Of a stretch of DNA of 64,000 nucleotides, positions 22,850-44,717 are shown piece after piece. The stretch's first letter is position 1. Every line of letters begins with the position of its first letter. Origin of the DNA: an uncultured Eubacteriales bacterium (GTDB lineage: Bacteria; Bacillota; Clostridia; Oscillospirales; CAG-382); assembly GCA_934446095.1 (NCBI GenBank), contig CAKSDR010000001.1, forward strand, positions 4,893 through 68,892, in the 5' to 3' direction. Made by a program: the position numbers and the translations under genes. The notes under the pieces were generated by a model. That model did no database searches, had not been told where the DNA came from, and saw nothing but the letters and a program-made list of their open reading frames with translations.

Positions 22850-22868
22850 ACCGGGAAAACGCAGTTTT

Positions 22869-22900
22869 GCAGGACGCCTTCGGCGTCCTGCGTTTTATTC
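22869..22900 (+). terminator. Intrinsic terminator or attenuator immediately upstream of the ABC-F gene
   Basis: Perfect 10-bp GC-rich stem gcaggacgcc-ttcg-ggcgtcctgc followed by gttttattctt. Confidence 0.75.
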
Positions 22901-22926
22901 TTAAGCATCTACAGGGAGAGTTTTGT

Positions 22927-24849
22927 GTGATAATACTGAGTCTTGATAATATAAATATTTCTTTCGGAGAAAAAAATATTCTTCGGAACATATCTTTTGG
23001 GCTTAATGAAGGGGATAAACTCGGGATTGTGGGTGTAAACGGCGCCGGAAAAAGCCTGCTTCTGAAAACCATTACGGGAAAAATTTCTCCCGAGTCCGGC
23101 GGAGTTTATATATCCCGCGACAAAAAGATTTCATATCTCGAGCAAAACGATTATTTTGATCCCGAAAAAACAATTTTTGATGAAATGCTTCCGGCCTTTT
23201 CAGAACTTTGCGCGCTTGAAGAAAAACTTGCGCAGCTTTATGAAAAAATGAATGATAAAAATGATTCAAACAATCATATGGCCCTTGCAAAAGAATATAC
23301 TTTAAGTGAGGAAAAATTCCGAACATGCGGAGGATATGAATATAAAAACCGCATAAAAAGCATGCTGTGCTCGCTCGGGTTTGACGAGGAAAGGCAAAAA
23401 TCTAAAACAAGCACGCTTTCGGGCGGGCAGAAAACAAGGCTCTGCCTTGCAAGAACGCTGCTTTGCGAAAGCGATATTCTGATTCTCGACGAGCCGACAA
23501 ACCATCTTGATATAAAAACGGTAGTGTGGCTTGAGGAGTTCTTGTCTTCATACAAAAAGACGCTGCTTGTTGTTTCGCATGACAGATACTTTCTTGACAA
23601 AGTGACAAATAAAACTTTTGAAATTGAAAACGGCGAGGGTAAAATGTATAATGTCCCTTATACAAAATTCGTCGAACAAAAGCAAAAGAATCTTGAAACC
23701 GATATTAAGCATTATGAAATGCAGAAACGCGAAATTGAAAGAATGGAAGCGTTTATAGAAAACCAGAGAAGGTGGAACAGGCAAAGAAATATAATTGCTG
23801 CCGAAAGCCGCATGAAAGCCATTGAAAGAATGGACAAACTTGAAAGGCCAAAGAATGCTCCTGGCAAAATTTCGATGAAATTTTCATCCGGAGAACATAA
23901 ACTTTTGTCTGATAATATTCTTGAGGCGAGAGAACTTACAAAGGGATTTTCCGGGAAAACTCTTTTTTCGGGAGTGTCATTCGTGCTTCACAGCAGAGAA
24001 AGAATGTTTATATTCGGTCAGAACGGAGTCGGAAAATCAACGCTGTTAAAAATTCTCAGCGGGAAAATCACAGAATACGGCGGCAGTTTTGAATATATAA
24101 ACAAGATAAAAATAGGTTATTACGACCAGGAACACCAAGGACTTAATCCCGGCAACACAGTACTTGAAGAGTTGTGGGACGATTTTCCGGATAAAAATCA
24201 GAACGAAATAAGAAGCATTCTTGCAAGATTTCTGTTTACGGCGGATGATGTTGAGAAAAAAGTTTCGAGCCTGTCGGGAGGCGAAAAAGCAAGGCTTACA
24301 TTCGCAAAAATGATGCTTGAAAAACTCAACCTTCTGATACTTGACGAGCCCACAAATCACCTTGACGCGCAAAGCAGAGAGGTGCTGGAAGACGCGCTTT
24401 CGGAATATGACGGAACTATACTTGCAGTGTCGCACGACAGATATTTTATAAAAAAACTTGCGACAAGAATTATGGAACTGTATCCCGGAGGTTATTTCGA
24501 CTACACGGGAGGATATGAGGATTTTTGCGAATATGTTAAAAATCATCCTCGTGACGCGAAAACCGGAGAGCGCGGAGAAGACAGCAAAAAGGATAATAAA
24601 AGTGAGTATATTAAGGGCAAAGAGGAAAAAAGCATAAAAAGAAAGAATCAAAAACAACTTTCCGATACTGAAAATGAAATTCTGAAAATTGAAGAAAGAC
24701 TTTCTGAAATAGAGAAACTTATGCAGGAAAACGCATCTGATTATATTGCCGCGGCAAAATTTTATGAGGAAACCGAAAAGTTAAACTTAAAACTCGAGGA
24801 ACTTTACGAAAAACTGGAAAAACTCACGGAAGCCTGCGGACTTTCCTGA
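22927..24849 (+). CDS. ABC-F family ATPase (two NBDs, no TMD; ribosome-associated type)
   Basis: Two Walker A motifs (GVNGAGKS, GQNGVGKS), two signatures (LSGGQK, LSGGEK), an inter-domain linker and a C-terminal coiled coil. GTG start at 22927 after AGGGAGAG gives a typical MIILSLDNINISFG N-terminus. Confidence 0.9.
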   Translation: MIILSLDNINISFGEKNILRNISFGLNEGDKLGIVGVNGAGKSLLLKTITGKISPESGGVYISRDKKISYLEQNDYFDPEKTIFDEMLPAFSELCALEEKLAQLYEKMNDKNDSNNHMALAKEYTLSEEKFRTCGGYEYKNRIKSMLCSLGFDEERQKSKTSTLSGGQKTRLCLARTLLCESDILILDEPTNHLDIKTVVWLEEFLSSYKKTLLVVSHDRYFLDKVTNKTFEIENGEGKMYNVPYTKFVEQKQKNLETDIKHYEMQKREIERMEAFIENQRRWNRQRNIIAAESRMKAIERMDKLERPKNAPGKISMKFSSGEHKLLSDNILEARELTKGFSGKTLFSGVSFVLHSRERMFIFGQNGVGKSTLLKILSGKITEYGGSFEYINKIKIGYYDQEHQGLNPGNTVLEELWDDFPDKNQNEIRSILARFLFTADDVEKKVSSLSGGEKARLTFAKMMLEKLNLLILDEPTNHLDAQSREVLEDALSEYDGTILAVSHDRYFIKKLATRIMELYPGGYFDYTGGYEDFCEYVKNHPRDAKTGERGEDSKKDNKSEYIKGKEEKSIKRKNQKQLSDTENEILKIEERLSEIEKLMQENASDYIAAAKFYEETEKLNLKLEELYEKLEKLTEACGLS

Positions 24850-24886
24850 AATTTCGTCCGAAAATGGAAATTTTAGGCGTAAAAAT

Positions 24887-24923
24887 ATGACGAACAGTGG
24901 AATTTTCGGTTCGTCATTTTTTA
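24887..24923 (+). terminator. Intrinsic terminator after ABC-F gene
   Basis: Stem atgacgaac / gttcgtcat followed by a T-run. Confidence 0.7.
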
Positions 24924-25271
24924 TACAGTGTAGAAAATAACGGCATATTTTTGTAAATTTTCAACAAAACATTTGTTGCGATTTTTAAGTTAAAATATGA
25001 ATATGAGTTCAAAAAGTAAATTTAACGGCAATTATTTATTTAAAAAACTTATATGATAAAATTATATATAACAAAAATAAAAACGCGAAAACCCTATAAT
25101 TATAATGCACAAAATATTTAATAAAATTAATTATATATAACTATAATTATTAAATTTGTGAATTTTTTAATTTAATATAAATTTTTTATACAAACTTTTC
25201 CACATTTTTTGCAAGCGTTTTTGTGCCATTTTATAAAGTTGACTAAATAAAGGACCCGGTAATTGTCATAC

Positions 25272-25300
25272 TTGACAAAAAAGGCATATTATGCTATTCT
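25272..25300 (+). promoter_or_regulatory. Candidate sigma-A promoter of the 25.6-37.7 kb operon
   Basis: TTGACA, 17-nt spacer, TATTCT, with TG at the extended -10 position. Sits at the end of a very AT-rich tract. Confidence 0.4.
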
Positions 25301-25575
25301 TTTTATAAGAATAAATAGGTATATTTATGTCATTTTTTGTCGGTCTTTTTTGCATTTTGAAACATGCTCGCATGTTTTGCCGCACGGGCTTTTGCACAAG
25401 AAAAAATATATTTTTCGGCGCAGAAGATTCCGAACGACGCATGCCTGTAAAAATTACCGCGGAAAACAGATATAAAAATTCCGCGCCGGCCGGGTCAGAA
25501 GCATGGATTCGGCACATATTTTGCGGCGCGGATTTATGTTTCGGCTTTGCAAATATTTTAGGAGGAAATAAACGA

Positions 25576-28500
25576 ATGAACAAAAATGTAAAATTTTTCG
25601 GCAAGTTTATATGCGCAACTCTCGCTGCATCAACGATCTTTTCTTCCGCAGCGTTTGTATCTGCGGCAAAAGGTTCGTCCGAGCCTACATATAATTCGCT
25701 TGCGCAGACTGCCGAACTGCTTACATCCACAACATATGACGAATATCTTATAAGATACTCCAAGACCGATATGGCAAACGAAACCGTAGTTGTTGACGCT
25801 GTGGATTTCGACCGCAAAAGCACGACTTCCGACGTTCTTGTGCTTGATGATAAAGATGGCATCTTGGGCGGGAATTTTGAGAAAGTGTTGTACACTCCCG
25901 ATACCGGTAAGACAGGGTTTAAGGTAAATATTCCCAAGACCGGACTTTACAATATCGAAATTTCATATTTCCCGTTTTCAAAAGTATATTACGACGACGA
26001 GAACAAAATAGTTGCGACCGAGCAGTCAAATCCTAAAAATCTGAATACCGGCGATTACAACTGCCTTTCCGGAAACACTTCTGCTATCGAACGCGTTTTT
26101 GCGATAGATTCCGAAGTTCCCTTCTCCGAGGCGAGAAACATTTCTTTCCCGAGAATATGGAAGAACAACTATATAAATCCCGGACACAGGGAATTCAAAC
26201 TTGACATAAACGGCAATGAGATCCGTCCTAAAATGTATGAGGCGCCGGAATGGAGAAGCGTTACACTGAAAGACTCCAACGCCTTTTACGACGATTCGTT
26301 TGTTTTCTATTTTGAACAGGGCGAGCATACGATACAGTTTGATTCTTCGCGTGAACCTGTTATTTTGGGAGAAATAAAGTTATATACCGAAGAAAAATTA
26401 AAGACATATGAAGAAGTGAAAAGCGAATACGAAAAGAACGGATATAAATCCGCATCTTCCGACGCTTCGATAAAACTTCAGGCCGAAACGCCGAAATACA
26501 CTTCCGAGCAGGTTATCTATCCCGTAAACGACAGAACATCCGCTGTTACCGAACCCCAGGAGGGCGCAGTTTCGCTTCTCAATACGATAGGCGGAGAAAA
26601 GTGGGAAATTGCGGGTCAGCAGGTAGCGTATGAATTTACCTGTAAGGAATCGGGACTGTATTATATAATTCCGCGTTCAAAGCAGTCGGTATACTCCGGC
26701 ATATTTTCATCAAGATCGCTGAAAATTAACGGGGAATATCCGTTCAGCGACGCAAAACACCTTCAGTTCAACTATTCCGACAACTGGAAAACAGATCCGT
26801 TAAATGACGGAAAGACAGAATTTGTATTCTATTTTGAAGAAGGAAAAACATACGAGATTTGTTTTGAAGTAGTTCTCGGAAATCTTACCGAGGATTTAAG
26901 AAAAGTTAACCAGAGTCTTGAAAAAATGAATGAGTATTACAGAAAAATACTTATGATAACAGGACCCAATCCGGATAAATATACTGATTACGACTTTGCA
27001 AAACTTATTCCCGAAGTTTTGAAAGGAATGAGAACAGAAGCCGAAAATCTCTATAGCATATCTGCGGAACTTGAGCAGATTATGGGACAGAAGGGCGAAC
27101 ACTCTGTTCTTCTTGATAAAATAGCATATATTCTTGATCTTATGGGAAATAACCAGACGAAAATACCCGATAACTTATCTGTACTCAAGACATATATTGG
27201 TTCTCTCGGTACATGGCTTCTTCAGTCTAAAAACCAGCCTTTGCAGGTTGACTATATTCTTATACAGGGTATAGATGAGGAACTTCCCAAACCCGAGGCA
27301 AGTTTTTGGCAGTCATTGAAATTTGAGGTAAGTTCGTTTATAAAATCGTTCTTTACTGATTATAACTCGCTCGGCTCGACTGCCGAATCCAAAGGCAGCG
27401 ATCAGTCGATTGAAGTATGGGTAACGACAGGACGCGACCAGGCTCAGATTTTGCGCGAAATGGTAGATGATTTTACTCAGAGTTCAGGAATTTCGGTAAA
27501 TATTAAACTTGTTGCGACAGGAACTCTTCTGCCCGCAACGCTTGCCGGCGTGGGGCCGGACGTTGCGGACGATGCGGATCCTACGAGTTACGGCGTAAGA
27601 ACTGCGGTTAAAAACCTTAACGAGAAAGATCCCGAAACAGGGGAATATGTGTTCTCCGGCATGGATGAAGTGAAGACGTGGTTCAGCGATGCCGCATGGA
27701 GAGCCGTTACGGTATATAATCCCGACGCTACCGACGCAATTAACGAAGAGGCGATTTACGGTGTTCCCGTAACGCAGTCATTCCCGATACTTTTCTACCG
27801 CAAGGATATTTTCACGGATCTCGGACTTCAGGTTCCGGAAACGTGGGATGATGTATACGGAATTATAAGAACATTGTCCGACAACAATATGTCAATGGGT
27901 CTTTTGAGCGATTCGAACATGCTTCTTACATTCATGTATCAGAAAAACGAACCGCTGTATGCGGGTGATACGCCAGAAACTCTCGGTATGAGAACAAACC
28001 TTGATTCAAATATTGCACTTGACGCATTCCAGACGATGTGCGAGTTCTTCACAATGTACAGCCAGCCCGTAAAATTTGACTTCCCGAACCGTTTCAGGAC
28101 AGGAGAAATGCCGATAGGCATTGCCGATTACAGCACTATTTATAATCAGCTTGAGTGCTTTGCCCCTGAAATCAAAGGTCTTTGGGAATTTGTAAGAATT
28201 CCCGGCACGCTTCAGGAAGACGGAACTGTAAATCATGCAATTCCCACTACCATCACAGCTTCAATGATTATGCATAATTCCAAAAATCCTCAGGCTGCAT
28301 GGGAGTACATAAAATGGTGGACGAGTGTTTCCGCACAGGAAAGATTCGGAAAAGAACAGGTTGCCGTTATGGGATCTGCCGCAAAATATAATACGGCGAA
28401 TATTGAGGCGCTTAAGGCTCAGCCGTGGTCATCTCAGGAAGTTAAAAATCTTTCCCAGCAATTCGAGTCCCTCGAGGGAACGCCTATGACGCCGGGTAAC

Positions 28501-32801: not shown

Positions 32802-35681
32802 ATGAAAAAAATAATATCTGTAATTCTTTCAATCTTTATGCTTGCGTGCACCCTTTCTTCTTTTACATTCGTTCACGCCGAAGGACCTGAGTTTTTGTGC
32901 AAGTCCGGAGGTGCCGATGTATTTGTAGATAAAAGCACGGGAGATGTTCAGTTTTATCTGAACGGCAAACTGCTTTTTTCCGAAGACGTGCCCGACGGTA
33001 CAAAAATTACCGATACCGTTGCTGTTGAAGATTATACTTCAAAAGTTTTTAAAAGCCCGCAGGAAAAAGTTGCAACTACAATGAATTACTTTTATGACAA
33101 CGGCGAATATGCGATATTTGCCGACAAGGATTCCGGAGAAGTTGCAATGATGACAAAAAGCACGGGACAAATACTTCTTACGAACCCTTATGACGTAGGC
33201 GCGACCACATCTGACACAAAAATCAAGAATCAATTGCTTTCGCAGGTAATTCTGACTTATCAGAAACGCGGAAATGAAAATACATATTCGAGTTTTGGCG
33301 AAGGCGCGCTTAATAATCAGGTAAAAATTAAAAAAATCCGTTCCGGTGTTAGGGTTGAATATACAATAGGACGTTCGGAAATCCGCACTCTTGTTCCGGA
33401 ACTTATCGAAAAGGGAGCTTTTGAAGAAAAGATTCTTTCAAAGGTTACAATCGAAAACGCAGTATCGGGAAAAACCGAGGCTGCTGTAAAAAAAGATTAC
33501 AGCAAACTCACGGCGTTCTATAACCTTAAAGACCCGAATGCTAAAGGTCTTTCGGATACCGCCAAGAAAAATATGAAACTTACATATCCGATAACTCAGA
33601 AGTATGCCGTGTACATGCTCGATGCCGGTACTTCCGCAAGACAGAAGTACGAAATAGAAAGCATAATTAAAGAATATACCGATTACTCGTTTGAGGACAT
33701 GGAAAGCGATTATGCGACTGTTGAATATGAGGGTACAGAGGCTTCTCCCCCACTGTTCAAAATTGCAATAGAATATTATGCGGACGAATACGGATTTAAG
33801 GTAAGAGTTCCGTCTAAGAGCATAAGATATGATTCCGCCGAATATACGGTTTCAAATATGATTATTCTTCCTTATCTCGGCGCAGGCTCAAATGATGAAT
33901 CCGGATATACTTTCATTCCTGATGGCTCCGGCGTTATTACTTATTTCAAGGACGCTGTCGAAAAGCCTATCGTAATTACCGGCAAAATGTACGGGATGGA
34001 TTATTCATATCATAAAACAAGCGGCCAGAATCAGGAAGTAATGAGATTACCCGCATTTGGTGTTGCAAGAGATTCTTCGTATATGCTCGTTACAAAGAAG
34101 ACTGCAAAAACAAATGTCGATCAGGCTTCCGCAAACCAAACCTCGGATTTTGACTATTCCGGTGTTAATGTCAGCGAAAAGACCGCATATCTCGGATATG
34201 TTGAGGAAGGCGAATCTCTTATTGACATATCAACGGCTCATGGCGGAACTGTAAGCCATAAGTACAATTCAGCGTATACAAAAATATATCCGATATTGAA
34301 GGATACGTATAAATTGTCGGGCGTAAATGCTGAAATGACGGTCGATTCAAACAGAAAATATACCGGAAACTATACATACAGAATTTTCCCGCTTTCTGAT
34401 GAAAAGGCAAATTATATAGGCATGGCGGAAGTTTTGAGAGATTACCTCGAGAAAACAGGAGTTATTTCAAAACTCGATAAAGAAAACGGAAACAGCGATA
34501 TACCCCTGTATCTTGAAAACTTCGGTTCGCTCACCACAAGTCAAAAAATAATGGGATTTCCTGTCAGCGAACAAACTCCTCTTACAACTTTTGAACAGAG
34601 CAAAACCATGATCTCTGAACTCAAAGAAGCGGGCGTTGAAAATATCAATCTGAAACTTACCGGTTGGTATAACGGCGGTCTTAGCCATACGGTGCCGAGT
34701 AAACTTAAAGTTGAAAAGGCTCTCGGCGGTGAAAAAGATCTTTTGGACCTTATAAAATATGCCTCCGAAAACAAAATCGGAATCTATCCCGACTTGGAAT
34801 TTACGTTTGTAAGCAAAACCGAAATGTTTGACGGTTATAACTACAAGAAGGATGCTGTGAAAACTATCGATAAGCGTTCTGCCGTAATTCAGGAATACAG
34901 CCCGCTGTATCAGGAATTTGAAGACGGAAGATATCAGATACTTTCTCCGAACGCAATCTCAAAGTTCTACGAAAAATCTTCCGAAAAATATTTGAAGTAT
35001 AATGCCGGAGGAATTTCCGTCGCAAGTCTTGGCTCATATCTGAATTCCGATCAGAATGAAGACTATCCTTATACAAGAGAAGAAGCAAAATCCGAGATTT
35101 CCAATATTTTGTCAAAAATGAAGGAAGATAACGGAAGTGTGCTTGTAGACGGAGGAAATTCATATACGCTGAAATATGCCGACCATATTCTAAATATGCC
35201 TGTCGACAGCAGCCGTAACGTTTATACGAGCGAGGCAATCCCATTTATCGGAATGGTGCTTCACGGATATAAGGAATACACGGGAACTGCCATGAACCTT
35301 GACGGTGACTATAAATATTCTATACTGAAAGCCGTTGAAAACGGTGCATCTCCGTACTTCATACTTTCTTATACATCAGATGAATTTGACAATACTTCGG
35401 AACTTAAAAACTATCCGGAGTTTAGAAAATATTATTCTATCAAATATAATATTTGGAAAAATGACCTTGTGGAAACGTATAACACTTTGAATGATGCTCT
35501 TTCCAATGTAAAATATTCCACAATTTCATCTCACGAATATATAGATGAAAGAGTTGTAAAAGTAACATATTCTAACGGTGTATCGTTTATTCTGAATTAT
35601 AACGATGAACCGTATGAATATAACGGAACAACAATAGAAAAATTAAGTTTTATAAATGAGAAAGGAGAAGACCATGAATAA
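32802..35681 (+). CDS. Large secreted protein, DUF5696-like (possible glycoside-hydrolase-like TIM barrel)
   Basis: Start set to ATG 32802, with a signal peptide (..FTFVHA|EGP). The DUF5696 assignment is from memory of annotated Clostridia/Paenibacillus neighbourhoods. LKLTGWYNGGL...GIYPDLEFTF resembles barrel strands. Confidence 0.6.
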   Translation: MKKIISVILSIFMLACTLSSFTFVHAEGPEFLCKSGGADVFVDKSTGDVQFYLNGKLLFSEDVPDGTKITDTVAVEDYTSKVFKSPQEKVATTMNYFYDNGEYAIFADKDSGEVAMMTKSTGQILLTNPYDVGATTSDTKIKNQLLSQVILTYQKRGNENTYSSFGEGALNNQVKIKKIRSGVRVEYTIGRSEIRTLVPELIEKGAFEEKILSKVTIENAVSGKTEAAVKKDYSKLTAFYNLKDPNAKGLSDTAKKNMKLTYPITQKYAVYMLDAGTSARQKYEIESIIKEYTDYSFEDMESDYATVEYEGTEASPPLFKIAIEYYADEYGFKVRVPSKSIRYDSAEYTVSNMIILPYLGAGSNDESGYTFIPDGSGVITYFKDAVEKPIVITGKMYGMDYSYHKTSGQNQEVMRLPAFGVARDSSYMLVTKKTAKTNVDQASANQTSDFDYSGVNVSEKTAYLGYVEEGESLIDISTAHGGTVSHKYNSAYTKIYPILKDTYKLSGVNAEMTVDSNRKYTGNYTYRIFPLSDEKANYIGMAEVLRDYLEKTGVISKLDKENGNSDIPLYLENFGSLTTSQKIMGFPVSEQTPLTTFEQSKTMISELKEAGVENINLKLTGWYNGGLSHTVPSKLKVEKALGGEKDLLDLIKYASENKIGIYPDLEFTFVSKTEMFDGYNYKKDAVKTIDKRSAVIQEYSPLYQEFEDGRYQILSPNAISKFYEKSSEKYLKYNAGGISVASLGSYLNSDQNEDYPYTREEAKSEISNILSKMKEDNGSVLVDGGNSYTLKYADHILNMPVDSSRNVYTSEAIPFIGMVLHGYKEYTGTAMNLDGDYKYSILKAVENGASPYFILSYTSDEFDNTSELKNYPEFRKYYSIKYNIWKNDLVETYNTLNDALSNVKYSTISSHEYIDERVVKVTYSNGVSFILNYNDEPYEYNGTTIEKLSFINEKGEDHE

Positions 35682-36642
35682 AGCGGTATCTGCCCCAAAC
35701 CAGGGTACAAAAAAGAAAAAAAAGCCCGCATCGCTTGACGCAAAAAAGGCAAGGGCCGGAATATGGTTTGTTCTTCCTTTCCTTATAGGTCTTGTTTGTA
35801 TATATCTTCCTATGATATACGATTCTATAAAACTCAGTTTTCATAGAATTCATATAGTAAGGGGCGGAGGGTTTGTCCTTGAATATGTAGGCTGGCAAAA
35901 TTACAGCGACGCCCTTTTTTCGGATGCAAACTATGTTCAGGTGCTTGTTGAAAGCGTAAAACAATTGGTACTCGATATACCTGCAATAGTTCTGTTTTCA
36001 CTCTTTATGGCAATAATACTTAACCAGAAGATGATAGGCCGTGCAGTGTTCCGTGCAATATTCTTCATACCTGTAATAATTTCAACCGGCATTATAGACT
36101 CTCTTGACCAGAGCAACGCGATATCGAATTATATGAGTTCCGACTCTATAGATACGGGTAACATAAACGGTTCTTCAGCAACAGAGATTGTTTCAAGCAT
36201 GGATATTACAAACCTGCTTGGAAATATGGCGGTCGGAACGGAACTTGTGCAATATGTCGTTAATATTGTAAATAATATATTCAATATTGTAAACCGTTCC
36301 GGCGTACAGATGCTGATTTTCCTTGCGGGACTTCAGTCGATTTCTCCGTCGATTTATGAATCGTGCACCATGGAGGGAGCAACTCCTTGGGAAACTTTCT
36401 GGAAGATAACATTCCCGATGATAAGTCCTATGATACTTGTAAACTCTATATATACGGTCATAGATTCATTTACATCGGAATCGAATAAGGTTATGTCATA
36501 TATAACGGAAGTATACAGAGGCGAGGACGGAAACGTGCTTAGCGCCGCCATGTCGTGGATGTACTTTTTAATAGTAATGCTGATAATTCTTCTGGTAGCG
36601 GCAATACTTTCTTCATATGTATTCTACCAGAGAAGAGATTGA
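35674..36642 (+). CDS. Carbohydrate ABC transporter permease, MalF-like (pair 2)
   Basis: EAA loop YESCTMEGATPWETFWKITFPMISP. ATG 35674 follows AAAGGAG and overlaps the previous gene by 8 nt. Confidence 0.9.
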   Translation: MNKAVSAPNQGTKKKKKPASLDAKKARAGIWFVLPFLIGLVCIYLPMIYDSIKLSFHRIHIVRGGGFVLEYVGWQNYSDALFSDANYVQVLVESVKQLVLDIPAIVLFSLFMAIILNQKMIGRAVFRAIFFIPVIISTGIIDSLDQSNAISNYMSSDSIDTGNINGSSATEIVSSMDITNLLGNMAVGTELVQYVVNIVNNIFNIVNRSGVQMLIFLAGLQSISPSIYESCTMEGATPWETFWKITFPMISPMILVNSIYTVIDSFTSESNKVMSYITEVYRGEDGNVLSAAMSWMYFLIVMLIILLVAAILSSYVFYQRRD

Positions 36643-37716: not shown

Positions 37717-37749
37717 GAAAATTTCCGGCATATGCCGGAAATTTTTTTG
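37717..37749 (+). terminator. Intrinsic terminator ending the seven-gene operon
   Basis: Stem aaatttccggca-ta-tgccggaaattt followed by a T-run. Confidence 0.8.
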
Positions 37750-37812: not shown

Positions 37813-37851
37813 GAACACTTGTTTGACATTGCAAAAATTATATGCTATAAT
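37813..37851 (+). promoter_or_regulatory. lexA promoter with overlapping SOS (Cheo-type) box
   Basis: GAACACTTGTTT (GAAC-N4-GTTT) at 37813-37824 overlaps a perfect TTGACA (37823-37828), 17-nt spacer, TATAAT (37846-37851). Confidence 0.7.
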
Positions 37852-37931
37852 TGCAGTGTAATTAAGAAAAACTGTTTTATTTTAATAGAGTTTAATTTTG
37901 TTTGTAAATTATGGTTTAAGAGGTATAATGT

Positions 37932-38534
37932 ATGGCTGAAATGAAAACGAAAGAAAAAATGATTTTGGATTACATCGCGCGGACAATAAATCAGGAAGGG
38001 TATGCGCCTTCTGTAAGAGATATATGTCAGGCGCTCGGAATAAAATCAACATCAACCGTTCATATGTATCTTGAAAGACTTGAAAACAACGGTTATATAC
38101 AAAGACAAAGCGGAAAGAGCAGAACAATACGCCTTGAAAAGGCCAAAGACAGCGAGATAAGTTATAAAGTTCCGATTCTCGGGCAGGTAGCGGCAGGCCA
38201 GCCGATACTTACAATAGAAAACATGGAAGGATATATAGAATACACAACTTTCAAACACTACGACAATGACTCTTTGTTTGCGCTCAGGATATCCGGAAAC
38301 AGCATGATTGAAGCAGGTATACTTAACGGAGATATAGTAATCGTCGAACAGAGGACATATGCCGATAACGGCGATATAGTTGTCGCTATGATAGATGACA
38401 GCGCGACAGTAAAAAGATTTTTCAAGGAAAAAGGAAGATACAGACTTCAGCCGGAAAACTCTCAGATGGCTCCGATCTTTACCGACGAGGTTGTAATTTT
38501 GGGAAAAGTTATTGCAAGTCTTAGATATTATTAA
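37932..38534 (+). CDS. lexA: LexA repressor
   Basis: N-terminal winged HTH, AG cleavage region (QVAAGQP), catalytic Ser (SGNSM) and Lys (VKRF). Confidence 0.95.
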   Translation: MAEMKTKEKMILDYIARTINQEGYAPSVRDICQALGIKSTSTVHMYLERLENNGYIQRQSGKSRTIRLEKAKDSEISYKVPILGQVAAGQPILTIENMEGYIEYTTFKHYDNDSLFALRISGNSMIEAGILNGDIVIVEQRTYADNGDIVVAMIDDSATVKRFFKEKGRYRLQPENSQMAPIFTDEVVILGKVIASLRYY

Positions 38535-38789: not shown

Positions 38790-39779
38790 ATGATAGAAGT
38801 AGAGCATATAGTAAAAAAGTATGCTTCGGTTGTTGCGATTGATGATATTTCGTTTAAGGTTGAAACGGGCGAAATAGTAGGATTCCTAGGACCAAACGGC
38901 GCCGGCAAGAGCACTATGATGAATATTATTACGGGATATCTTTCTGCAACATCGGGAAATGTAAGGGTAGACGGTATAGATATTCTTGAAAATCCTATAG
39001 AAGCAAAAAAGAAAATAGGATTTTTGCCGGAAATTCCGCCGCTGTACCTCGATATGACAGTCAAAGAATATCTGAATTTTGTATACGAACTTAAACAGTG
39101 TAAACTGTCAAGACAGGAACACATAGATGAAATTTGCAGAGTCGTAAAAATAGAAGACGTGTATAACCGCGTTATAAAGCACCTTTCAAAAGGTTACCGT
39201 CAGCGTGTCGGCATAGCTCAGGCGCTTGTCGGAAATCCGCCTGTTATAATATTTGATGAACCCACAGTAGGTCTTGACCCTGTGCAGATAATTGAGATAA
39301 GAAATCTTATAAAAACGCTGGGGAAAAAGCACACCGTAATACTCAGCACTCATATATTATCCGAGGTGCAGTCTGTATGCGACAGGGTAATCGTAATAAA
39401 TAAGGGCAAACTTGCGGCAGATGAAAAAACCGTTGAACTTCAAAAAGACAGCGACAGCACAATAAAATATTCCGCAAAAATCTGCGGTCCGCGGACACTT
39501 GTGCTGAAGGCGATAAGAGGTCTTGACGGCGTTATAAAAGCAGGATGCGCAGGCGCGGGAGAAGAAAATAGCCTTATATATATCTTTGAGGCAGAATCCT
39601 GTGCAGAAATAAGAAAACCGCTGTTTTCCATACTTTCGGAACATGGCTGGCCTCTTGTCGGGCTTGAAAAGGCTGACGCAAGCCTTGAGGATGCTTTTAT
39701 GAGAATCGTATCTGACGCCGATGACGGCGCGGAAGAGGAAAATTCACAGACCGGCAAAAACGACGTGCAGGAGGGATAA
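38790..39779 (+). CDS. ABC-2-type transporter ATP-binding protein (GldA-like)
   Basis: Walker A GPNGAGKST, signature LSKGYRQR, Walker B IIFDEP and a C-terminal extension. Confidence 0.9.
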   Translation: MIEVEHIVKKYASVVAIDDISFKVETGEIVGFLGPNGAGKSTMMNIITGYLSATSGNVRVDGIDILENPIEAKKKIGFLPEIPPLYLDMTVKEYLNFVYELKQCKLSRQEHIDEICRVVKIEDVYNRVIKHLSKGYRQRVGIAQALVGNPPVIIFDEPTVGLDPVQIIEIRNLIKTLGKKHTVILSTHILSEVQSVCDRVIVINKGKLAADEKTVELQKDSDSTIKYSAKICGPRTLVLKAIRGLDGVIKAGCAGAGEENSLIYIFEAESCAEIRKPLFSILSEHGWPLVGLEKADASLEDAFMRIVSDADDGAEEENSQTGKNDVQEG

Positions 39780-39781
39780 AA

Positions 39782-40495
39782 ATGATTGCAATATACAAAA
39801 GGGAAATGAAGGCATATTTCGCCTCTGCCATAGGATATATTTTTTCGGCGGTATTTTTCGCTCTTTCAGGCTTGATTTTCTCGCTTACAACTTTGTTTAT
39901 GCGCACATCAGAGCCTTCAAATTATTTTGTAATTATGATGTTTTTATTCATAATACTGATTCCGATACTTACAATGAAACTTTTTTCCGAAGAAAGAAAA
40001 CTGAAGACGGAACAAATTCTGCTTACCTCGCCCGTAAGTCTATTCGGAATGGTTTTTGCAAAATTTGCAGCGGCATTTACGATGTTTGCGGGGACATTTA
40101 TCGCCTCTTGTCTTGTAAACTTTGTAACGCTTGCGGCGATTTCTAAAAAGAGTTTGAATATAGGCAGCATTGCGGGCAGCGTTATAGGCATTTTGTTTAT
40201 AGGCGGAGTATTTATTTCAATAGGAATACTTTTGTCGTCGCTTACCGAAAATCAGTTGATTGCGGCAGTTTCAACGATCGGAACAATAATATTTATGCTT
40301 TCCCTGCAGTTTATAACTTCTATATTTGACTCACCGGCGGTAAGAAACGTTATAAAATGGTTCTCCGTAATAGACAGATTTACCTATTTTACAAACGGAA
40401 TATTTTCTGTATCGGCAATTATATTTTTTATAAGCCTTATTATAATTTTTCTTTTTCTCACAATACGAGTATTTGAAAAACGCCGTTGGGAGTAA
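39782..40495 (+). CDS. ABC-2 family permease (GldF-like)
   Basis: 237 aa with six TM segments. Its N-terminus MIAIYKREMKAYFASAIGYIF is typical of ABC-2/GldF permeases. Confidence 0.75.
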   Translation: MIAIYKREMKAYFASAIGYIFSAVFFALSGLIFSLTTLFMRTSEPSNYFVIMMFLFIILIPILTMKLFSEERKLKTEQILLTSPVSLFGMVFAKFAAAFTMFAGTFIASCLVNFVTLAAISKKSLNIGSIAGSVIGILFIGGVFISIGILLSSLTENQLIAAVSTIGTIIFMLSLQFITSIFDSPAVRNVIKWFSVIDRFTYFTNGIFSVSAIIFFISLIIIFLFLTIRVFEKRRWE

Positions 40496-40512
40496 AGGGG
40501 AAGGAAAGCAGT

Positions 40513-42018
40513 ATGAATAATTTTTTCAATAAAGAAATTTTTAAGACCAGAAAATTTAAATACGGCTCTGTCGCAACTGCATTTATTGTGATTTTTATAG
40601 CACTGATACTTGTAATAAATGTTATAATAACCGCGCTTGACAACAAGTTCGGTTTGTATATCGATACCACAAAGGAAAAAATTTATGATGTTGGCGACGA
40701 GTCCAGGGCAATACTTGATTCGATAGACAGCGATATTGAAATAATTTTTTGCCGCGATAGGGATAAACTTGCAAGCAATACATATATGAACATGGTAGTT
40801 ACCCTTGCGGAAAATTATGAAAGACTTTACCCGAACATTAAGGTGAAATTCTGCGATATTGCGCGAAATCCTAAGGAAGTTGAAAAATTTAAGGAAACAA
40901 CCTCATCAAAATTATATGCGACAAGCGTTATCGTAAACTGTCCGGATACCGGCAAATATAAAGTTTATACGAATAACACAGCTTTCTTTACATTTACCGA
41001 AAATAACACTTCTGCTCCTTACGGATTTAACGGCGAGATGAGGTTTACCTCGGCGATAATTTCGGTTACGGGTTCCGCAAATGACAAGATAGTGTTTACC
41101 GTGGGTCACGGAGAAACGGTATCTTCGTCATCGTTTATAGAAATATTCCAGAACGCAGGATATTCCGCGGATTCAGTTTTAAGCATAGACTTGTCCACCC
41201 AGGATATTCCCGATAATACAAAACTTGTAATAATCAGCAATCCTCTGTATGACTTTGCAGGTGAGGCAGAAGAACTTTCGGGAAGCGTCAATGAAATCTC
41301 AAAACTTAAAAAATATCTTAATTCTTTCGGAAATTTGTTTGTTCTCATAAATAATCAGACCGAAGAACTTCCGGAAATCTCTGAACTTTTAAAAGAAGAT
41401 TACGGAATTTCATGGCACAGCGGAGAAACCGTAAAAGACACAGAAAAATCGGTATCTGCCGATGGGCTCGGTATAATTTCACAATACAACGATTCCGAGG
41501 ACGATACATACGCATATAAAATCACAAAGGAAATAACAAGCGCTTCTTCATCAAAGACTGTAATGAGCAACACAACGCCGCTGTATATTAATAAGGATAA
41601 ACAGTCGCTGAAGGTTTCTCCGGTGCTGATGTCGTCGGACAAGGCGCAGGTTACATTGCTTGGCAAGGAAATATCAAAAGGACAGTCTGTTCTTATGGCT
41701 GTTTCAACTTATACGCAGTATGTAAATAACGAAGAAAAAACTTCAAATGTTATAGTGTCCGGTTCAACGGACTTTTCATCTGCGTCATATATTTCTTCCG
41801 CTACATATGCAAACGCCGATGTGGTATACAGTATACTGAAACTTGCCGGCAGACAGCAAGTTCCTATAAACATTGAATTCCGTCCGTTTGAAGACACGGG
41901 TATTTCCGACATCAGCATGTCGAGCATTAAAAACACAGCTGTTGTGCTTTCACTTGTATTTCCGGCGATTATACTTGCTGCAGGCATTGTCGTATGGAGA
42001 AGGAGAAAGTCCTTATGA
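40513..42018 (+). CDS. GldG-like ABC-transporter auxiliary protein (bitopic, large extracytoplasmic domain)
   Basis: N- and C-terminal TM anchors flank a ~440-aa domain. It holds the position and architecture of GldG in gldAFG loci. Start set to ATG 40513. Confidence 0.7.
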   Translation: MNNFFNKEIFKTRKFKYGSVATAFIVIFIALILVINVIITALDNKFGLYIDTTKEKIYDVGDESRAILDSIDSDIEIIFCRDRDKLASNTYMNMVVTLAENYERLYPNIKVKFCDIARNPKEVEKFKETTSSKLYATSVIVNCPDTGKYKVYTNNTAFFTFTENNTSAPYGFNGEMRFTSAIISVTGSANDKIVFTVGHGETVSSSSFIEIFQNAGYSADSVLSIDLSTQDIPDNTKLVIISNPLYDFAGEAEELSGSVNEISKLKKYLNSFGNLFVLINNQTEELPEISELLKEDYGISWHSGETVKDTEKSVSADGLGIISQYNDSEDDTYAYKITKEITSASSSKTVMSNTTPLYINKDKQSLKVSPVLMSSDKAQVTLLGKEISKGQSVLMAVSTYTQYVNNEEKTSNVIVSGSTDFSSASYISSATYANADVVYSILKLAGRQQVPINIEFRPFEDTGISDISMSSIKNTAVVLSLVFPAIILAAGIVVWRRRKSL

Positions 42019-43469
42019 TAAAAAAACAATTAAAATTAATTGTGATATTATTTATATCGGCAGTGATTCTGATAACGGGATTTTTAATATTAAAACCGCA
42101 TATTTTGAAAAGTACTTCTGAAGACGAAGAACGGTATGACAAAGACGGTGATAAACTCGTCGGCACATCCGGCGCGGTTTATGTCTTTGAACCTGCGGAT
42201 TTTGAAAAGGTGAGCAGCGTTGAAATAAAAAATTACGGCGAGCCTTGGATAAAATTGTACAGAACTGAAGACGGCGGCAGTTTTTTCATTCAGGGATACG
42301 AGCAGTATGCTTATGACAGCGCAAGTATAAGCACGCTTGTGCACGCATGCTGCAGTCTTACCGCTGCGGAAAAAGTAAATGATCCGAAGGATTTTAAAGA
42401 GTATGGAATAGACGGAGAAAACAGCGCGGCAAGCGTTACTGTGACATTAAATGATAACACGGCCTATAAATTTTATGTAGGCGATAAACTTGTAACCGGC
42501 AATGCGTATTATGTTGAATACGAGGGCAAACCTTATTTATATGCCGTAACGACGGATATTGAACTTTTGTTTTCCGACACCGGAACATTGTTTGCAACCG
42601 CGTTGTCACAAAATGTTCCGGCAAGCGATAATTATAATGTTACCGATTTTAAATTGTACCGCAACAATGAACTTTTTTTGAACATTCAGAGAATACCTGA
42701 CGAGAATATAGACAAAAACGACGCATTCAATTATTTTAAAATGGTATATCCCGAGGGCTACAGAGTGTCCGGAACAAACTACTCGAGCGTGCTTGAAACT
42801 TTTTCGGACTGGCAGAACGAAGAAGTCATAACGGTTGAAATTTCGGATGATAAACTTCGCGAATATGATCTTTCGGAGCCTTTATATGAAATTGATTACA
42901 CATATAAAGACCACGAGAGCAAAATCTATTTCGGAAGCAAAACCGACGACGGATATATCTACACTCTTTCGGCAGATTATATGACGATAGGCAAAATTCC
43001 CTTCGAAAAGGTATCTTTCCTTGATTACGATGTTATTTTCTTCACTGACATGTTTTTGTATACAAAAAATATTGACGCCGTGTCCGAAATTTCGGTAAAA
43101 TCAAAGGATATTGACGCGGCATTTGCACTTTCGGGAGAGGGAAACGAACTTACAGTTACAAGAAAAAGAACGGGAGAGGCAATAGATACAAGAAATTTCA
43201 GACAGTTTTATATGACTTTTCTTATGGCAAAAGCCGAAGGAATAAGCGACATAAAGTCGCAGGATAATCTTGTTCTGACGATTGCCGTAACCGAAAAGGA
43301 CGGAAGTTCCAAAGTATTTAACTTTTATTCAGTTTCCACGAGAAAATGTTTTTACACGGTAAACGGCATCGGTTCTTTTTATGTAAGCAGAGACTGCGTT
43401 GACAAAATAATAAGCGATGCCGGAAAACTCATAAACGGCGAAAGCATAGATTCGTTTCAAAAGGAATAA
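42015..43469 (+). CDS. DUF4340-like membrane-anchored protein
   Basis: N-terminal TM plus a 450-aa extracytoplasmic domain. ATGA overlap with the gldG-like stop. DUF4340 proteins commonly follow gldG homologues, as far as I recall. Confidence 0.6.
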   Translation: MIKKQLKLIVILFISAVILITGFLILKPHILKSTSEDEERYDKDGDKLVGTSGAVYVFEPADFEKVSSVEIKNYGEPWIKLYRTEDGGSFFIQGYEQYAYDSASISTLVHACCSLTAAEKVNDPKDFKEYGIDGENSAASVTVTLNDNTAYKFYVGDKLVTGNAYYVEYEGKPYLYAVTTDIELLFSDTGTLFATALSQNVPASDNYNVTDFKLYRNNELFLNIQRIPDENIDKNDAFNYFKMVYPEGYRVSGTNYSSVLETFSDWQNEEVITVEISDDKLREYDLSEPLYEIDYTYKDHESKIYFGSKTDDGYIYTLSADYMTIGKIPFEKVSFLDYDVIFFTDMFLYTKNIDAVSEISVKSKDIDAAFALSGEGNELTVTRKRTGEAIDTRNFRQFYMTFLMAKAEGISDIKSQDNLVLTIAVTEKDGSSKVFNFYSVSTRKCFYTVNGIGSFYVSRDCVDKIISDAGKLINGESIDSFQKE

Positions 43470-43487
43470 AACTGAAAGGCGATTTAC

Positions 43488-44717
43488 ATGAAAGACAAAA
43501 AGAAAACCGATATTATAATTTATATTGTTACGATTGTTTTATCGGTGTTGTTTATAGTTTTGGGAAATAAAATTGTTACGGGCAAGGAGTCACTCGTAGG
43601 TTACGAAGATGACGGTACGGAAATTTTAAAAGTTGTTGTCACAAAGGTATCTCCCACAGAAGAAAATGCCGACAGTTGGAACGGGTATACCGAAAAAGTT
43701 ACTTTTTTTGAAGGACAGGTAATTTCAGGCGCGAAAAAAGGGCAGACGGTAGTTGCAGTGCAGCAGAACGACGATTACTTTAATCCGGATGCCGAAACCG
43801 TAAAATTAAAAGATAAAGTTATTTTAAATTCAAATTCGTATATAGACGGCGCCGACTATATCATGACAGACTACGCAAGAAGCGATTATATGATATTTCT
43901 TATGGCACTTTTCTGCGTCAGCCTTGTGATTTTCGGCAGGTTCAAAGGCTTTAGTACCCTTATATCGCTTGCGTTTACCGTTGCATCTGTAATTTTTATA
44001 TTTATCCCGGGAATTTTGCATGGCGCAAATATTTATGTGACGGCATTTGCAGTATGCGTTTATATGATAGTTATGACGCTTGTTATTGTCAGCGGAATAA
44101 ATAAAAAGTGCCTTTGCGCCATAATAGGCTGCACTTTCGGTACTATGACGATTGCGGCAATTTATTTTATATCCGACGCGATTATAAATCTTACGGGCTA
44201 TCTTAACGATACTTCAATATATATACATATGCTGAACAATGAAAATCCGATAGACTTAAAGGCGATAATTTTCGGTTCGATTTTAGTTGGGGCTGTGGGT
44301 GCCGTTATGGACGTTGCAATGTCATTGTCATCATCGCTTTATGAACTTTATAACGAAATCGAAAATCCGACATTTGGAGTTCTTATGCGTTCCGGAATGA
44401 ATATCGGACGGGATATGATGGGTACGATGTCAAATACGCTGATACTTGCGTACATCGGAAACTCGCTGCCGGTCTTGCTTATGATGATAGCGACCGTCTC
44501 GTCATCAATGGACTTTTTCAACAGGGAACTTATAGTTGTAGAAATGCTGAAATCTTTGTCGGGAAGTCTTGGAATACTGCTTACAATACCTCTTACGTCT
44601 TTTGTTTGTTCAGCCATATATTGCGGCAACAGACGAAAAAAGAACGATTCTTCAGAGGAGCCCGGAAGTTTTTCGGGAGATCCTTTTTCAGAGGAAAACG
44701 TAAAAAAATTTATGTAA
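43488..44717 (+). CDS. YibE/F family polytopic membrane protein
   Basis: N-terminal TM plus an extracytoplasmic domain, then about 7 TM segments with GAVGAVMDVAMSLSSSLYEL and GRDMMGTMSNTLILAYIG motifs. Confidence 0.8.
   Translation: MKDKKKTDIIIYIVTIVLSVLFIVLGNKIVTGKESLVGYEDDGTEILKVVVTKVSPTEENADSWNGYTEKVTFFEGQVISGAKKGQTVVAVQQNDDYFNPDAETVKLKDKVILNSNSYIDGADYIMTDYARSDYMIFLMALFCVSLVIFGRFKGFSTLISLAFTVASVIFIFIPGILHGANIYVTAFAVCVYMIVMTLVIVSGINKKCLCAIIGCTFGTMTIAAIYFISDAIINLTGYLNDTSIYIHMLNNENPIDLKAIIFGSILVGAVGAVMDVAMSLSSSLYELYNEIENPTFGVLMRSGMNIGRDMMGTMSNTLILAYIGNSLPVLLMMIATVSSSMDFFNRELIVVEMLKSLSGSLGILLTIPLTSFVCSAIYCGNRRKKNDSSEEPGSFSGDPFSEENVKKFM

Follow-up and report, generated by a model that had tools for sequence, protein, structure and literature searches.

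A DUF5696 protein homologous to GH129 glycosidases, encoded in a conserved transport cassette of Clostridia

A gene at positions 32802-35681 of a 64,000-nucleotide (nt) stretch of DNA from an uncultured Eubacteriales bacterium (assembly GCA_934446095.1, contig CAKSDR010000001.1; hereafter the window) encodes a 959-amino-acid (aa) protein that profile evidence places in the core clade of Pfam family DUF5696, a large clade with no characterised member. The protein is homologous to the α-glycosidases of glycoside hydrolase family 129 (GH129), and its gene lies in a conserved seven-gene cassette between two pairs of ATP-binding cassette (ABC) permeases. Our preferred reading, to which we give about an even chance (roughly 0.5), is that it is an enzyme of the GH129/GH101 superfamily whose catalytic centre has moved, and that it cleaves glycans outside the cell to feed a dedicated double ABC importer. 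An earlier note on this DNA, made from the letters alone, had described a secreted, DUF5696-like and possibly enzymatic protein of no known class; its description of the gene and of the fold has held up well, and its view of the classification only in part.

Family membership, fold and homology to GH129

The gene is real: its product matches PF18952 (DUF5696) with 526.6 bits (E = 1.2e-157; profile positions 116-612 and a second stretch) against a gathering threshold of 25.6 bits, and a profile built from 52 homologues retrieves 6,056 clusters (50% identity) at E ≤ 1e-3, 3,610 of them at 1e-30. These results agree with the family assignment and, together with the start and stop codons (ATG 32802, TAA 35679-35681), with the open reading frame (ORF) given in the earlier note. 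ATG 32802 was chosen over TTG 32781 because the ATG is preceded, at a distance of 9 nt, by the ribosome-binding site AAAGGAG. The N-terminus, MKKIISVILSIFMLACTLSSFTFVHA followed by EG, is the sole hydrophobic segment of the protein and resembles a type-I signal peptide; signal peptides of a like kind are predicted across the homologues, with a lipobox-like motif in just 16 of the 269 sequence-diverse family members used below, which supports the view that the protein is secreted. The 8-nt overlap with the second permease pair that the note reported is also present, since the permease ATG is at 35674, and locus L001 has a matching gene call. The motifs quoted in the note occur at residues 566-576 (DIPLYLENFGS), 615-628 (INLKLTGWYNGGLS) and 659-670 (IGIYPDLEFTFV).

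DUF5696 is the only Pfam family matched by the protein, no NCBIfam model matched it, and the Pfam search gave no match to PF11308 (GH129) or PF12905 (GH101) at E ≤ 0.01. PF18952 is likewise carried by every listed homologue. The few named sources are Ruminococcaceae, Oscillospiraceae and other Clostridia, and metagenomic relatives come from human gut, rumen, termite gut, fermenters, bioreactors and groundwater. No mention of the family was found in the literature searched under the names DUF5696 and PF18952. Several homologues of 1,800-2,500 aa (P0170, P0209, P0225 and others) carry C-terminal extensions of 900-1,500 aa that contain no Pfam domain and show a second, weaker match to the family profile; homologues of 1,700-2,500 aa have no extra Pfam domain hinting at function.

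An AlphaFold2 model built on a 52-sequence alignment has a pLDDT (predicted local distance difference test) of 87.8 and a pTM (predicted template modelling score) of 0.85. Searched against the PDB with Foldseek, as the earlier note had suggested, it matches GH129 enzymes best. The top hits are DagB/ZgGH129 (5opq, 8rzk; E 1.6e-28), the characterised exo-α-1,3-(3,6-anhydro)-D-galactosidase ZGAL_3152 of Zobellia galactanivorans (PMC5698469), and the second kind of hit is NagBb (5wzn; E 1e-23, template modelling (TM) score 0.72 over the target), the GH129 α-N-acetylgalactosaminidase of Bifidobacterium bifidum. GH101 endo-α-N-acetylgalactosaminidases (EngBF, SpGH101) follow at about 1e-13, and then GH31 and GH36 α-glycosidases (1e-13 to 1e-10 for the three families together); all of these share the barrel superfamily, although their TM-scores are much lower (0.26-0.46) and Pfam finds no GH101 match. 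Because the model matches GH129-type structures, the (β/α)8 barrel flanked by β-rich regions that the note had sensed in the letters proves right.

Sequence comparison supports the same relationship. A phmmer search of the 959-aa protein against PDB sequences returned nothing at E ≤ 1, and the family profile gave a marginal NagBb match (E 0.012). Because a 133-aa NagBb fragment used as query matched gene fragments only, full-length GH129 sequences were taken from genome loci, giving a NagBb-family set of 75 full-length ORFs. Aligned with these by hhalign, a comparison repeated with a 269-member DUF5696 alignment, residues 319-942 correspond to GH129 4-627 with 97.2% probability (E 4e-11), and the DagB family (49 sequences) is matched with 96.6% probability (E 6e-10). 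Furthermore, the Pfam DUF5696 model assigns 59.7 bits to a NagBb orthologue, above the threshold and above the score of that protein on the GH129 model, and true GH129 proteins score 20-29 bits on PF11308. DagB itself reaches 41 bits on DUF5696 (a partial match, above threshold) and carries the annotation "DUF5696 domain-containing protein". The superfamily has known α-glycosidases at its periphery and DUF5696, uncharacterised, at its core. Identity to the GH129 relatives is 10-17%. The label "unclassified" therefore stands in one respect, as the protein is not GH129 proper (neither PF11308 nor PF12905 is matched and the catalytic residues differ), and falls in another, as its homology to GH129 is detected at 97% probability by hhalign. 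Confident assignment to a characterised family, which the earlier note held would speak against its proposal, was not reached, homology to GH129 notwithstanding; a new family-level clade is possible from these sequence comparisons, and the protein cannot be confidently assigned to GH129 proper.

The three-domain GH129 architecture of N-terminal β-sandwich, barrel and C-terminal β-sandwich is recovered by both the structural and the profile comparisons (Table 1). The N-domain aligns with DagB (DagB 39-87 with residues 99-144, by BLASTP) and with GH129 (4-225 with residues 319-530), and a stretch of about 170 aa, partly helical and specific to the clade, is inserted into it. Its invariant residues are N128-P129, Q148, D374 (IPDGSG), D400 (YGxDY) and D501, and in the C-terminal domain H911 is conserved in the DUF5696 clade and in the NagBb and DagB families alike. 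Modelled alone, the N-terminal 296 residues (27-322; pLDDT 86.6) gave no significant PDB fold match, the only structural signal being a 91-column local match to DagB. An independent extra domain at residues 27-322 is ruled out by the BLASTP alignment, and because of that match the region is taken as the start of a DagB-type N-domain plus the insertion. DagB shares the order of N-terminal β-sandwich, TIM barrel and C-terminal Ig-like domain, is exported, and has the DUF5696 annotation; it differs in its low identity (about 12%), in its score on DUF5696 (41 bits versus 527), in being about 270 residues shorter, partly through lack of the N-domain insertion, and in its setting, a carrageenan polysaccharide utilisation locus of a marine Bacteroidota species rather than a clostridial ABC cassette. 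The recovered members of the NagBb family have about 630 aa and, unlike the DUF5696 protein, no signal peptide.

A conserved pocket in the barrel

Conservation was measured over the 269 sequence-diverse DUF5696 members. Seventy-one positions are at least 96% conserved, and those in the barrel lie mostly in β-to-α loops, the canonical functional face of a TIM barrel. Pocket residues that align with NagBb (posterior 0.6-0.9) are W622, D677, Y699, Q704, R759, H821 and N847-G848-x-x-P-Y. Among these, Y699 corresponds (posterior 0.8) to Trp398 of NagBb, the stacking platform for the sugar at subsite -1 (PMC8106489), and this position is Y, W or F in 268 of the 269 members. R759, N786 and H821 are each 100% conserved, and the DagB comparison pairs H821 with H556, H911 with H630, D794 with D528 and N786 with Q520. 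On the other side, His317 and Asp319 of NagBb (in its LHLDGW motif; substituted in the quadruple mutant 5wzq) are replaced by Lys and Thr.

The earlier note had proposed that homologues be aligned in search of conserved acids, and had taken a lack of such acids to count against an enzyme. The alignment contains seven at 95-100% conservation: D374 in the IPDGSG motif (100%), D400 (99.6%) and D501 (100%) in the N-domain, E572 on β1 (95.5%), D677 in the barrel (96%), D750 in the acid-rich β4-α4 loop (97%) and E846 before β8 (100%). Of the barrel residues, E572, D664/D666, D750, N786 and E846 are specific to the clade. As the note had also remarked, no canonical catalytic motif can be named.

Several features of the protein are recorded here in their own right. 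Loop 746-755 (35037-35066), between β4 and α4, is rich in acids (family consensus S-D-L-N-S-D-F-D-E-D-D-P) in the manner of a metal-binding loop; at this site NagBb carries an insertion rich in Cys, His and acids, and it uses Ca2+ for sugar recognition (PMC8106489). Residues 821-822 (35262-35267) read HG, versus HD in NagBb and HE in DagB, and GH97 shows a comparable split between HE (inverting) and HG (retaining). Position 746, which is D or E in 69% of members, was rejected as a nucleophile, since about 30% of the orthologues, the 959-aa protein included, have Y, A, T or S there while being fully conserved otherwise. E846 was considered as a catalytic residue, and lies at a helix-to-β8 junction that is probably at the bottom of the barrel, judging from the secondary structure of the model. 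Motif spacing (IPxxxG +20 versus +23) hints that DagB D202 may correspond to D400, without hhalign support.

The seven-gene cassette and its surroundings

Seven genes make up the cassette, with gaps of 33, 1, 11, 23, -8 and 12 nt between them (Table 1). DUF5696 comes fifth and is the only enzyme candidate among them. A single promoter-like site precedes the set and a strong hairpin follows it, and the seven are read as one transcription unit. The first gene encodes a giant solute-binding protein (SBP) with a type-I signal peptide, no lipobox, an unassigned N-terminal region of about 600 aa and a C-terminal SBP_bac_1/SBP_bac_8 domain, whose best PDB sequence matches are sugar-binding proteins (Lin1841, 5ysb, 6e-7; RafE-like). 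Together with the MalF/MalG-type permeases, this domain makes the cassette an importer of CUT1 (carbohydrate uptake transporter 1) type; all four permeases have EAA-type loops, and the second pair is only about 22% identical to the first. No ABC_tran ATPase gene is found in 25.3-37.7 kb of the window or in the cassettes of three related loci (L003, L005, L007), and a shared MsmK-type ATPase encoded elsewhere is assumed. The fourth gene encodes a membrane protein with a signal peptide, an extracellular NHL β-propeller, a tetratricopeptide-repeat-like stretch, a transmembrane (TM) segment at 485-503 and a C-terminal Yip1 domain (4 TM).

The mechanically called SBP frame begins 83 codons too early (25327-25575), and ATG 25576 gives a normal signal peptide. 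The latter also matches a 1036-aa gene call in L002, a metagenomic contig with an identical DUF5696 protein, and on these sequence grounds 25576 is probably the true start. Repeats resembling carbohydrate-binding modules (CBMs) in the N-terminal region of the SBP were considered and are unconfirmed, with no significant Pfam match and a faint CBM_35 flag in one homologue. Neither of the two large extracellular proteins, the SBP and DUF5696, has a lipobox beside its type-I signal peptide, which is unusual for a binding protein of a monoderm and raises the question of how they are retained at the cell surface. A search of 24700-25700, upstream of the cassette and including the untranslated leader of about 275 nt, found no Rfam element or riboswitch.

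The same gene order surrounds distant homologues (37-55% identity), and the flanking genes vary by genome (PriA, ThrRS, Mfd, PNPase, ribosomal proteins, spoVA). A Yip1/NHL gene lies directly 5' of DUF5696 in 59 of the 60 loci with enough flank, the SBP and first permease pair lie upstream in all 33 loci with at least 8 kb of flank, and the second permease pair lies downstream in every locus with enough flank, within 900 nt in 60 of 70 and otherwise up to about 3 kb away. This linkage is tighter than that of a typical glycosidase gene merely neighbouring a transporter and suggests that the cassette proteins function together, possibly as a physical complex.

Table 1. Coordinates in the window of the cassette genes, their candidate signals and the domains of the DUF5696 protein
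Feature	Coordinates	Strand	Basis
Candidate cassette promoter, TTGACA-17-TATTCT with TG, ~275 nt 5' of SBP start	25272..25300	+	consensus scan only
Giant solute-binding protein, 1036 aa	25576..28686	+	Pfam; start inferred
Permease A1, MalF/UgpA/GlcT-like, CUT1-type, EAA loop	28720..29694	+	Pfam/NCBIfam
Permease B1, MalG/UgpE/GlcU-like, EAA loop	29696..30577	+	Pfam/NCBIfam
Yip1/NHL membrane protein, 729 aa	30589..32778	+	Pfam Yip1 1.3e-14, NHL 8.5e-8; NHL PDB matches; hydropathy
DUF5696 ORF, 959 codons	32802..35681	+	ORF translation
DUF5696 signal peptide, residues 1-26, predicted cleavage after VHA	32802..32879	+	hydrophobicity and sequence
DUF5696 N-terminal region, residues 27-532, GH129/DagB-type β-sandwich N-domain	32880..34397	+	AlphaFold2, hhalign, BLASTP
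DUF5696 (β/α)8 barrel, residues 535-905	34404..35516	+	AlphaFold2, Foldseek, hhalign
DUF5696 C-terminal β-sandwich, residues 906-955	35517..35666	+	AlphaFold2, alignments
Permease A2, MalF/UgpA-like, variant coupling loop ESCTMEGA, start overlaps DUF5696 stop by 8 nt	35674..36642	+	
Permease B2, MalG/UgpE-like, EAA loop	36655..37704	+	Pfam
Probable bidirectional terminator, palindromic GC-containing hairpin, 12-bp stem, flanking A/T runs	37718..37745	.	sequence scan

Just 5' of the cassette, 22867-24849 (+) encodes an ABC-F protein that scores 473 bits on the NCBIfam model NF000355 "ribosomal protection-like ABC-F" (cutoff 380) and could, from this match, be of the antibiotic-resistance type. 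The cassette is followed by lexA (37823-38534), which has its own perfect TTGACA-17-TATAAT promoter with a TG extension and also lies just 3' of the cassette in L007, L088 and L089, so that this adjacency is partly conserved. A separate system occupies 38790-44717, with an ABC-2 type transporter (ATPase and ABC2_membrane), then DUF7088 and DUF4340 (a GldG-like cluster) and a YibE/F membrane protein.

Proposed function and its alternatives

In the reading we prefer, the DUF5696 protein would be secreted by the Sec pathway and work outside the cell on an α-linked glycan, the most likely substrate class by analogy with all of its structural relatives. A sugar ring would be held on the aromatic platform Y699 in the barrel pocket, the polymer would be cleaved to oligosaccharides, and the SBP would pass these to two ABC permeases powered by an ATPase encoded elsewhere. 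Because the acids of DagB and NagBb are not retained, catalysis would have to rely on other residues; candidates are E572, D664/D666, D677 and D750 on the catalytic face, possibly with D374, D400 and D501 of the N-domain, and a metal bound by the acid-rich β4-α4 loop may take part.

The fate of the known catalytic residues weighs against this reading, as do some features of the locus. The nucleophile D435 and acid/base E478 of NagBb are conserved in all 75 members of its family. D435, at the end of β4, faces N748 by hhalign (posterior 0.1) or S739 in the best ungapped register; neither column is acidic (N/S and S, respectively), and the nearest conserved acid is D750 in the clade-specific loop. 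E478, after β5, faces G785/N786 (G 91%, N 100%). In the DagB family, D202, D486, E517 and E531 are conserved in 49 of 49 sequences and are essential in DagB (PMC5698469). With posteriors of about 0.6, D486 falls on G737 (column G194 A29 S19 N15 T10 D1), E517 on the variable position 783 (D138 S64 E39 N22) and E531 on L797; D202 aligns with S345, a mapping that is unreliable. An ungapped-register scan, independent of hhalign, picks the same positions for the catalytic acids. The β4-β5 region is nonetheless the least certain part of the alignment (posteriors 0.1-0.6, with the register shifted between hhalign runs), and for this reason we conclude from the sequences that the DagB/NagBb catalytic residues are not demonstrably conserved and are probably absent from the DUF5696 clade. 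Furthermore, the acid that follows the β7 His in NagBb (HD) and DagB (HE) is Gly in 99% of the clade, and E846 probably sits at the N-terminal, bottom end of β8 in the model. A binding platform kept while catalytic acids are lost is a pattern that pseudo-glycosidases show too. The seven-gene unit contains no regulator or cytoplasmic enzyme, and the locus gives no hint of a substrate. Since this clade keeps the essential acids of neither DagB nor NagBb, the protein can be called no more than a putative enzyme.

Judged by related enzymes, however, loss of the canonical acids need not mean loss of activity. DagB and NagBb share only the nucleophile, and DagB requires an Asp from the N-domain of the other subunit (PMC5698469). 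In GH97 (BtGH97a/b), a related α-glycosidase barrel family that was not detected as a homologue and serves as a mechanistic analogy only, one subfamily, the inverting one, has Gly in place of the β4 nucleophile Asp and relies on a Ca-assisted Glu as base; certain other members have neither catalytic residue and "may be inactive or have evolved yet another" mechanism (PMC2670981).

The same residues can be read as those of an inactive GH129-like module that has kept its sugar pocket and, docked on the Yip1/NHL protein, serves the transporter as a subunit for capturing glycans, gating or scaffolding. Analogies would be the GH13-like heavy chains found in amino-acid transporters and, in GH18, the chitinase-like lectins. 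This is the main alternative, a realistic possibility held tentatively. Every known DagB/NagBb catalytic acid is replaced, with the stacking platform and neighbouring pocket residues retained; inactive GH13, GH18 and GH97 variants are documented (PMC2670981); and the gene is locked to transporter subunits, lying between two permease pairs with an 8-nt translational coupling to the next. As both DUF5696 and the SBP lack a lipid anchor, a membrane partner would be needed for their retention at the surface, and in Bacillus the Yip1-family protein YknW, encoded together with an ABC transporter, modulates the assembly of that transporter (PMC4887032). YknYZ, however, is a MacB-type exporter, whereas the cassette has MalFG-type importer permeases and its Yip1 protein bears a large NHL propeller ectodomain. 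Against an inactive module, the cassette already has a dedicated binding protein and would then be without any enzyme despite its oversized SBP, seven acids at 95-100% conservation are unusual for a pure lectin, and catalytic residues are known to move within the superfamily (PMC5698469).

If the protein were instead an ordinary GH129 enzyme, either a NagBb-like exo-α-N-acetylgalactosaminidase or a DagB-like 3,6-anhydro-D-galactosidase with the same retaining mechanism, its best structural matches and the Pfam model that the homologous families have in common would be as expected. The lack of a PF11308 or PF12905 match and the low identity noted above, the catalytic residues that are not conserved, the extra insertion of about 170 aa and the presence of a signal peptide that the recovered NagBb-type proteins do not have all argue otherwise, and carrageenan is an unlikely substrate in rumen, termite, bioreactor and groundwater sources. 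We regard such an enzyme as very improbable, and ordinary GH129 membership as essentially excluded. The cassette might also be non-nutritional, with DUF5696 trimming an envelope or extracellular glycopolymer of the cell's own and the importer recycling the fragments. The housekeeping neighbours that differ by genome, the lack of linked regulator or catabolic genes and the spread of the cassette across Clostridia of very different habitats fit this picture, which rests on context; no glycosyltransferase or polymer-export genes were found adjoining the cassette, and many nutrient CUT1 systems in Firmicutes likewise lack a linked ATPase or regulator. We consider it improbable.

More speculatively, the cassette as a whole could be an undescribed cell-surface machine of monoderm Clostridia for glycan processing and import, in which an anchor-less giant SBP and a protein derived from GH129, its catalytic centre rewired or lost, are organised by a Yip1/NHL scaffold over two distinct ABC permease dimers. 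This would be a functional counterpart, in Gram-positives, of Sus-like systems, with the DUF5696 core clade as the founding member of a new CAZy family whose catalytic arrangement would also be new; so complete a picture seems rather unlikely to hold in all its parts.

Far from being unclassifiable, the protein stands for a family-level clade that is very large and whose transport cassette, strictly conserved, is undescribed. The clade spans Clostridia of human gut, rumen, termite gut and bioreactor and has no characterised member. If the reading we prefer is right and the protein is an enzyme, it would define a new family-level branch of GH129/GH101 in which the catalytic centre has moved, and it would show what substrate this widespread cassette serves. 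An inactive protein would instead exemplify something rare among bacteria, a glycosidase fold taken over as an accessory of a transporter. Either way, a giant SBP in fixed combination with two permease pairs, a Yip1/NHL protein and a glycosidase-like protein constitutes an uncharacterised transport architecture.

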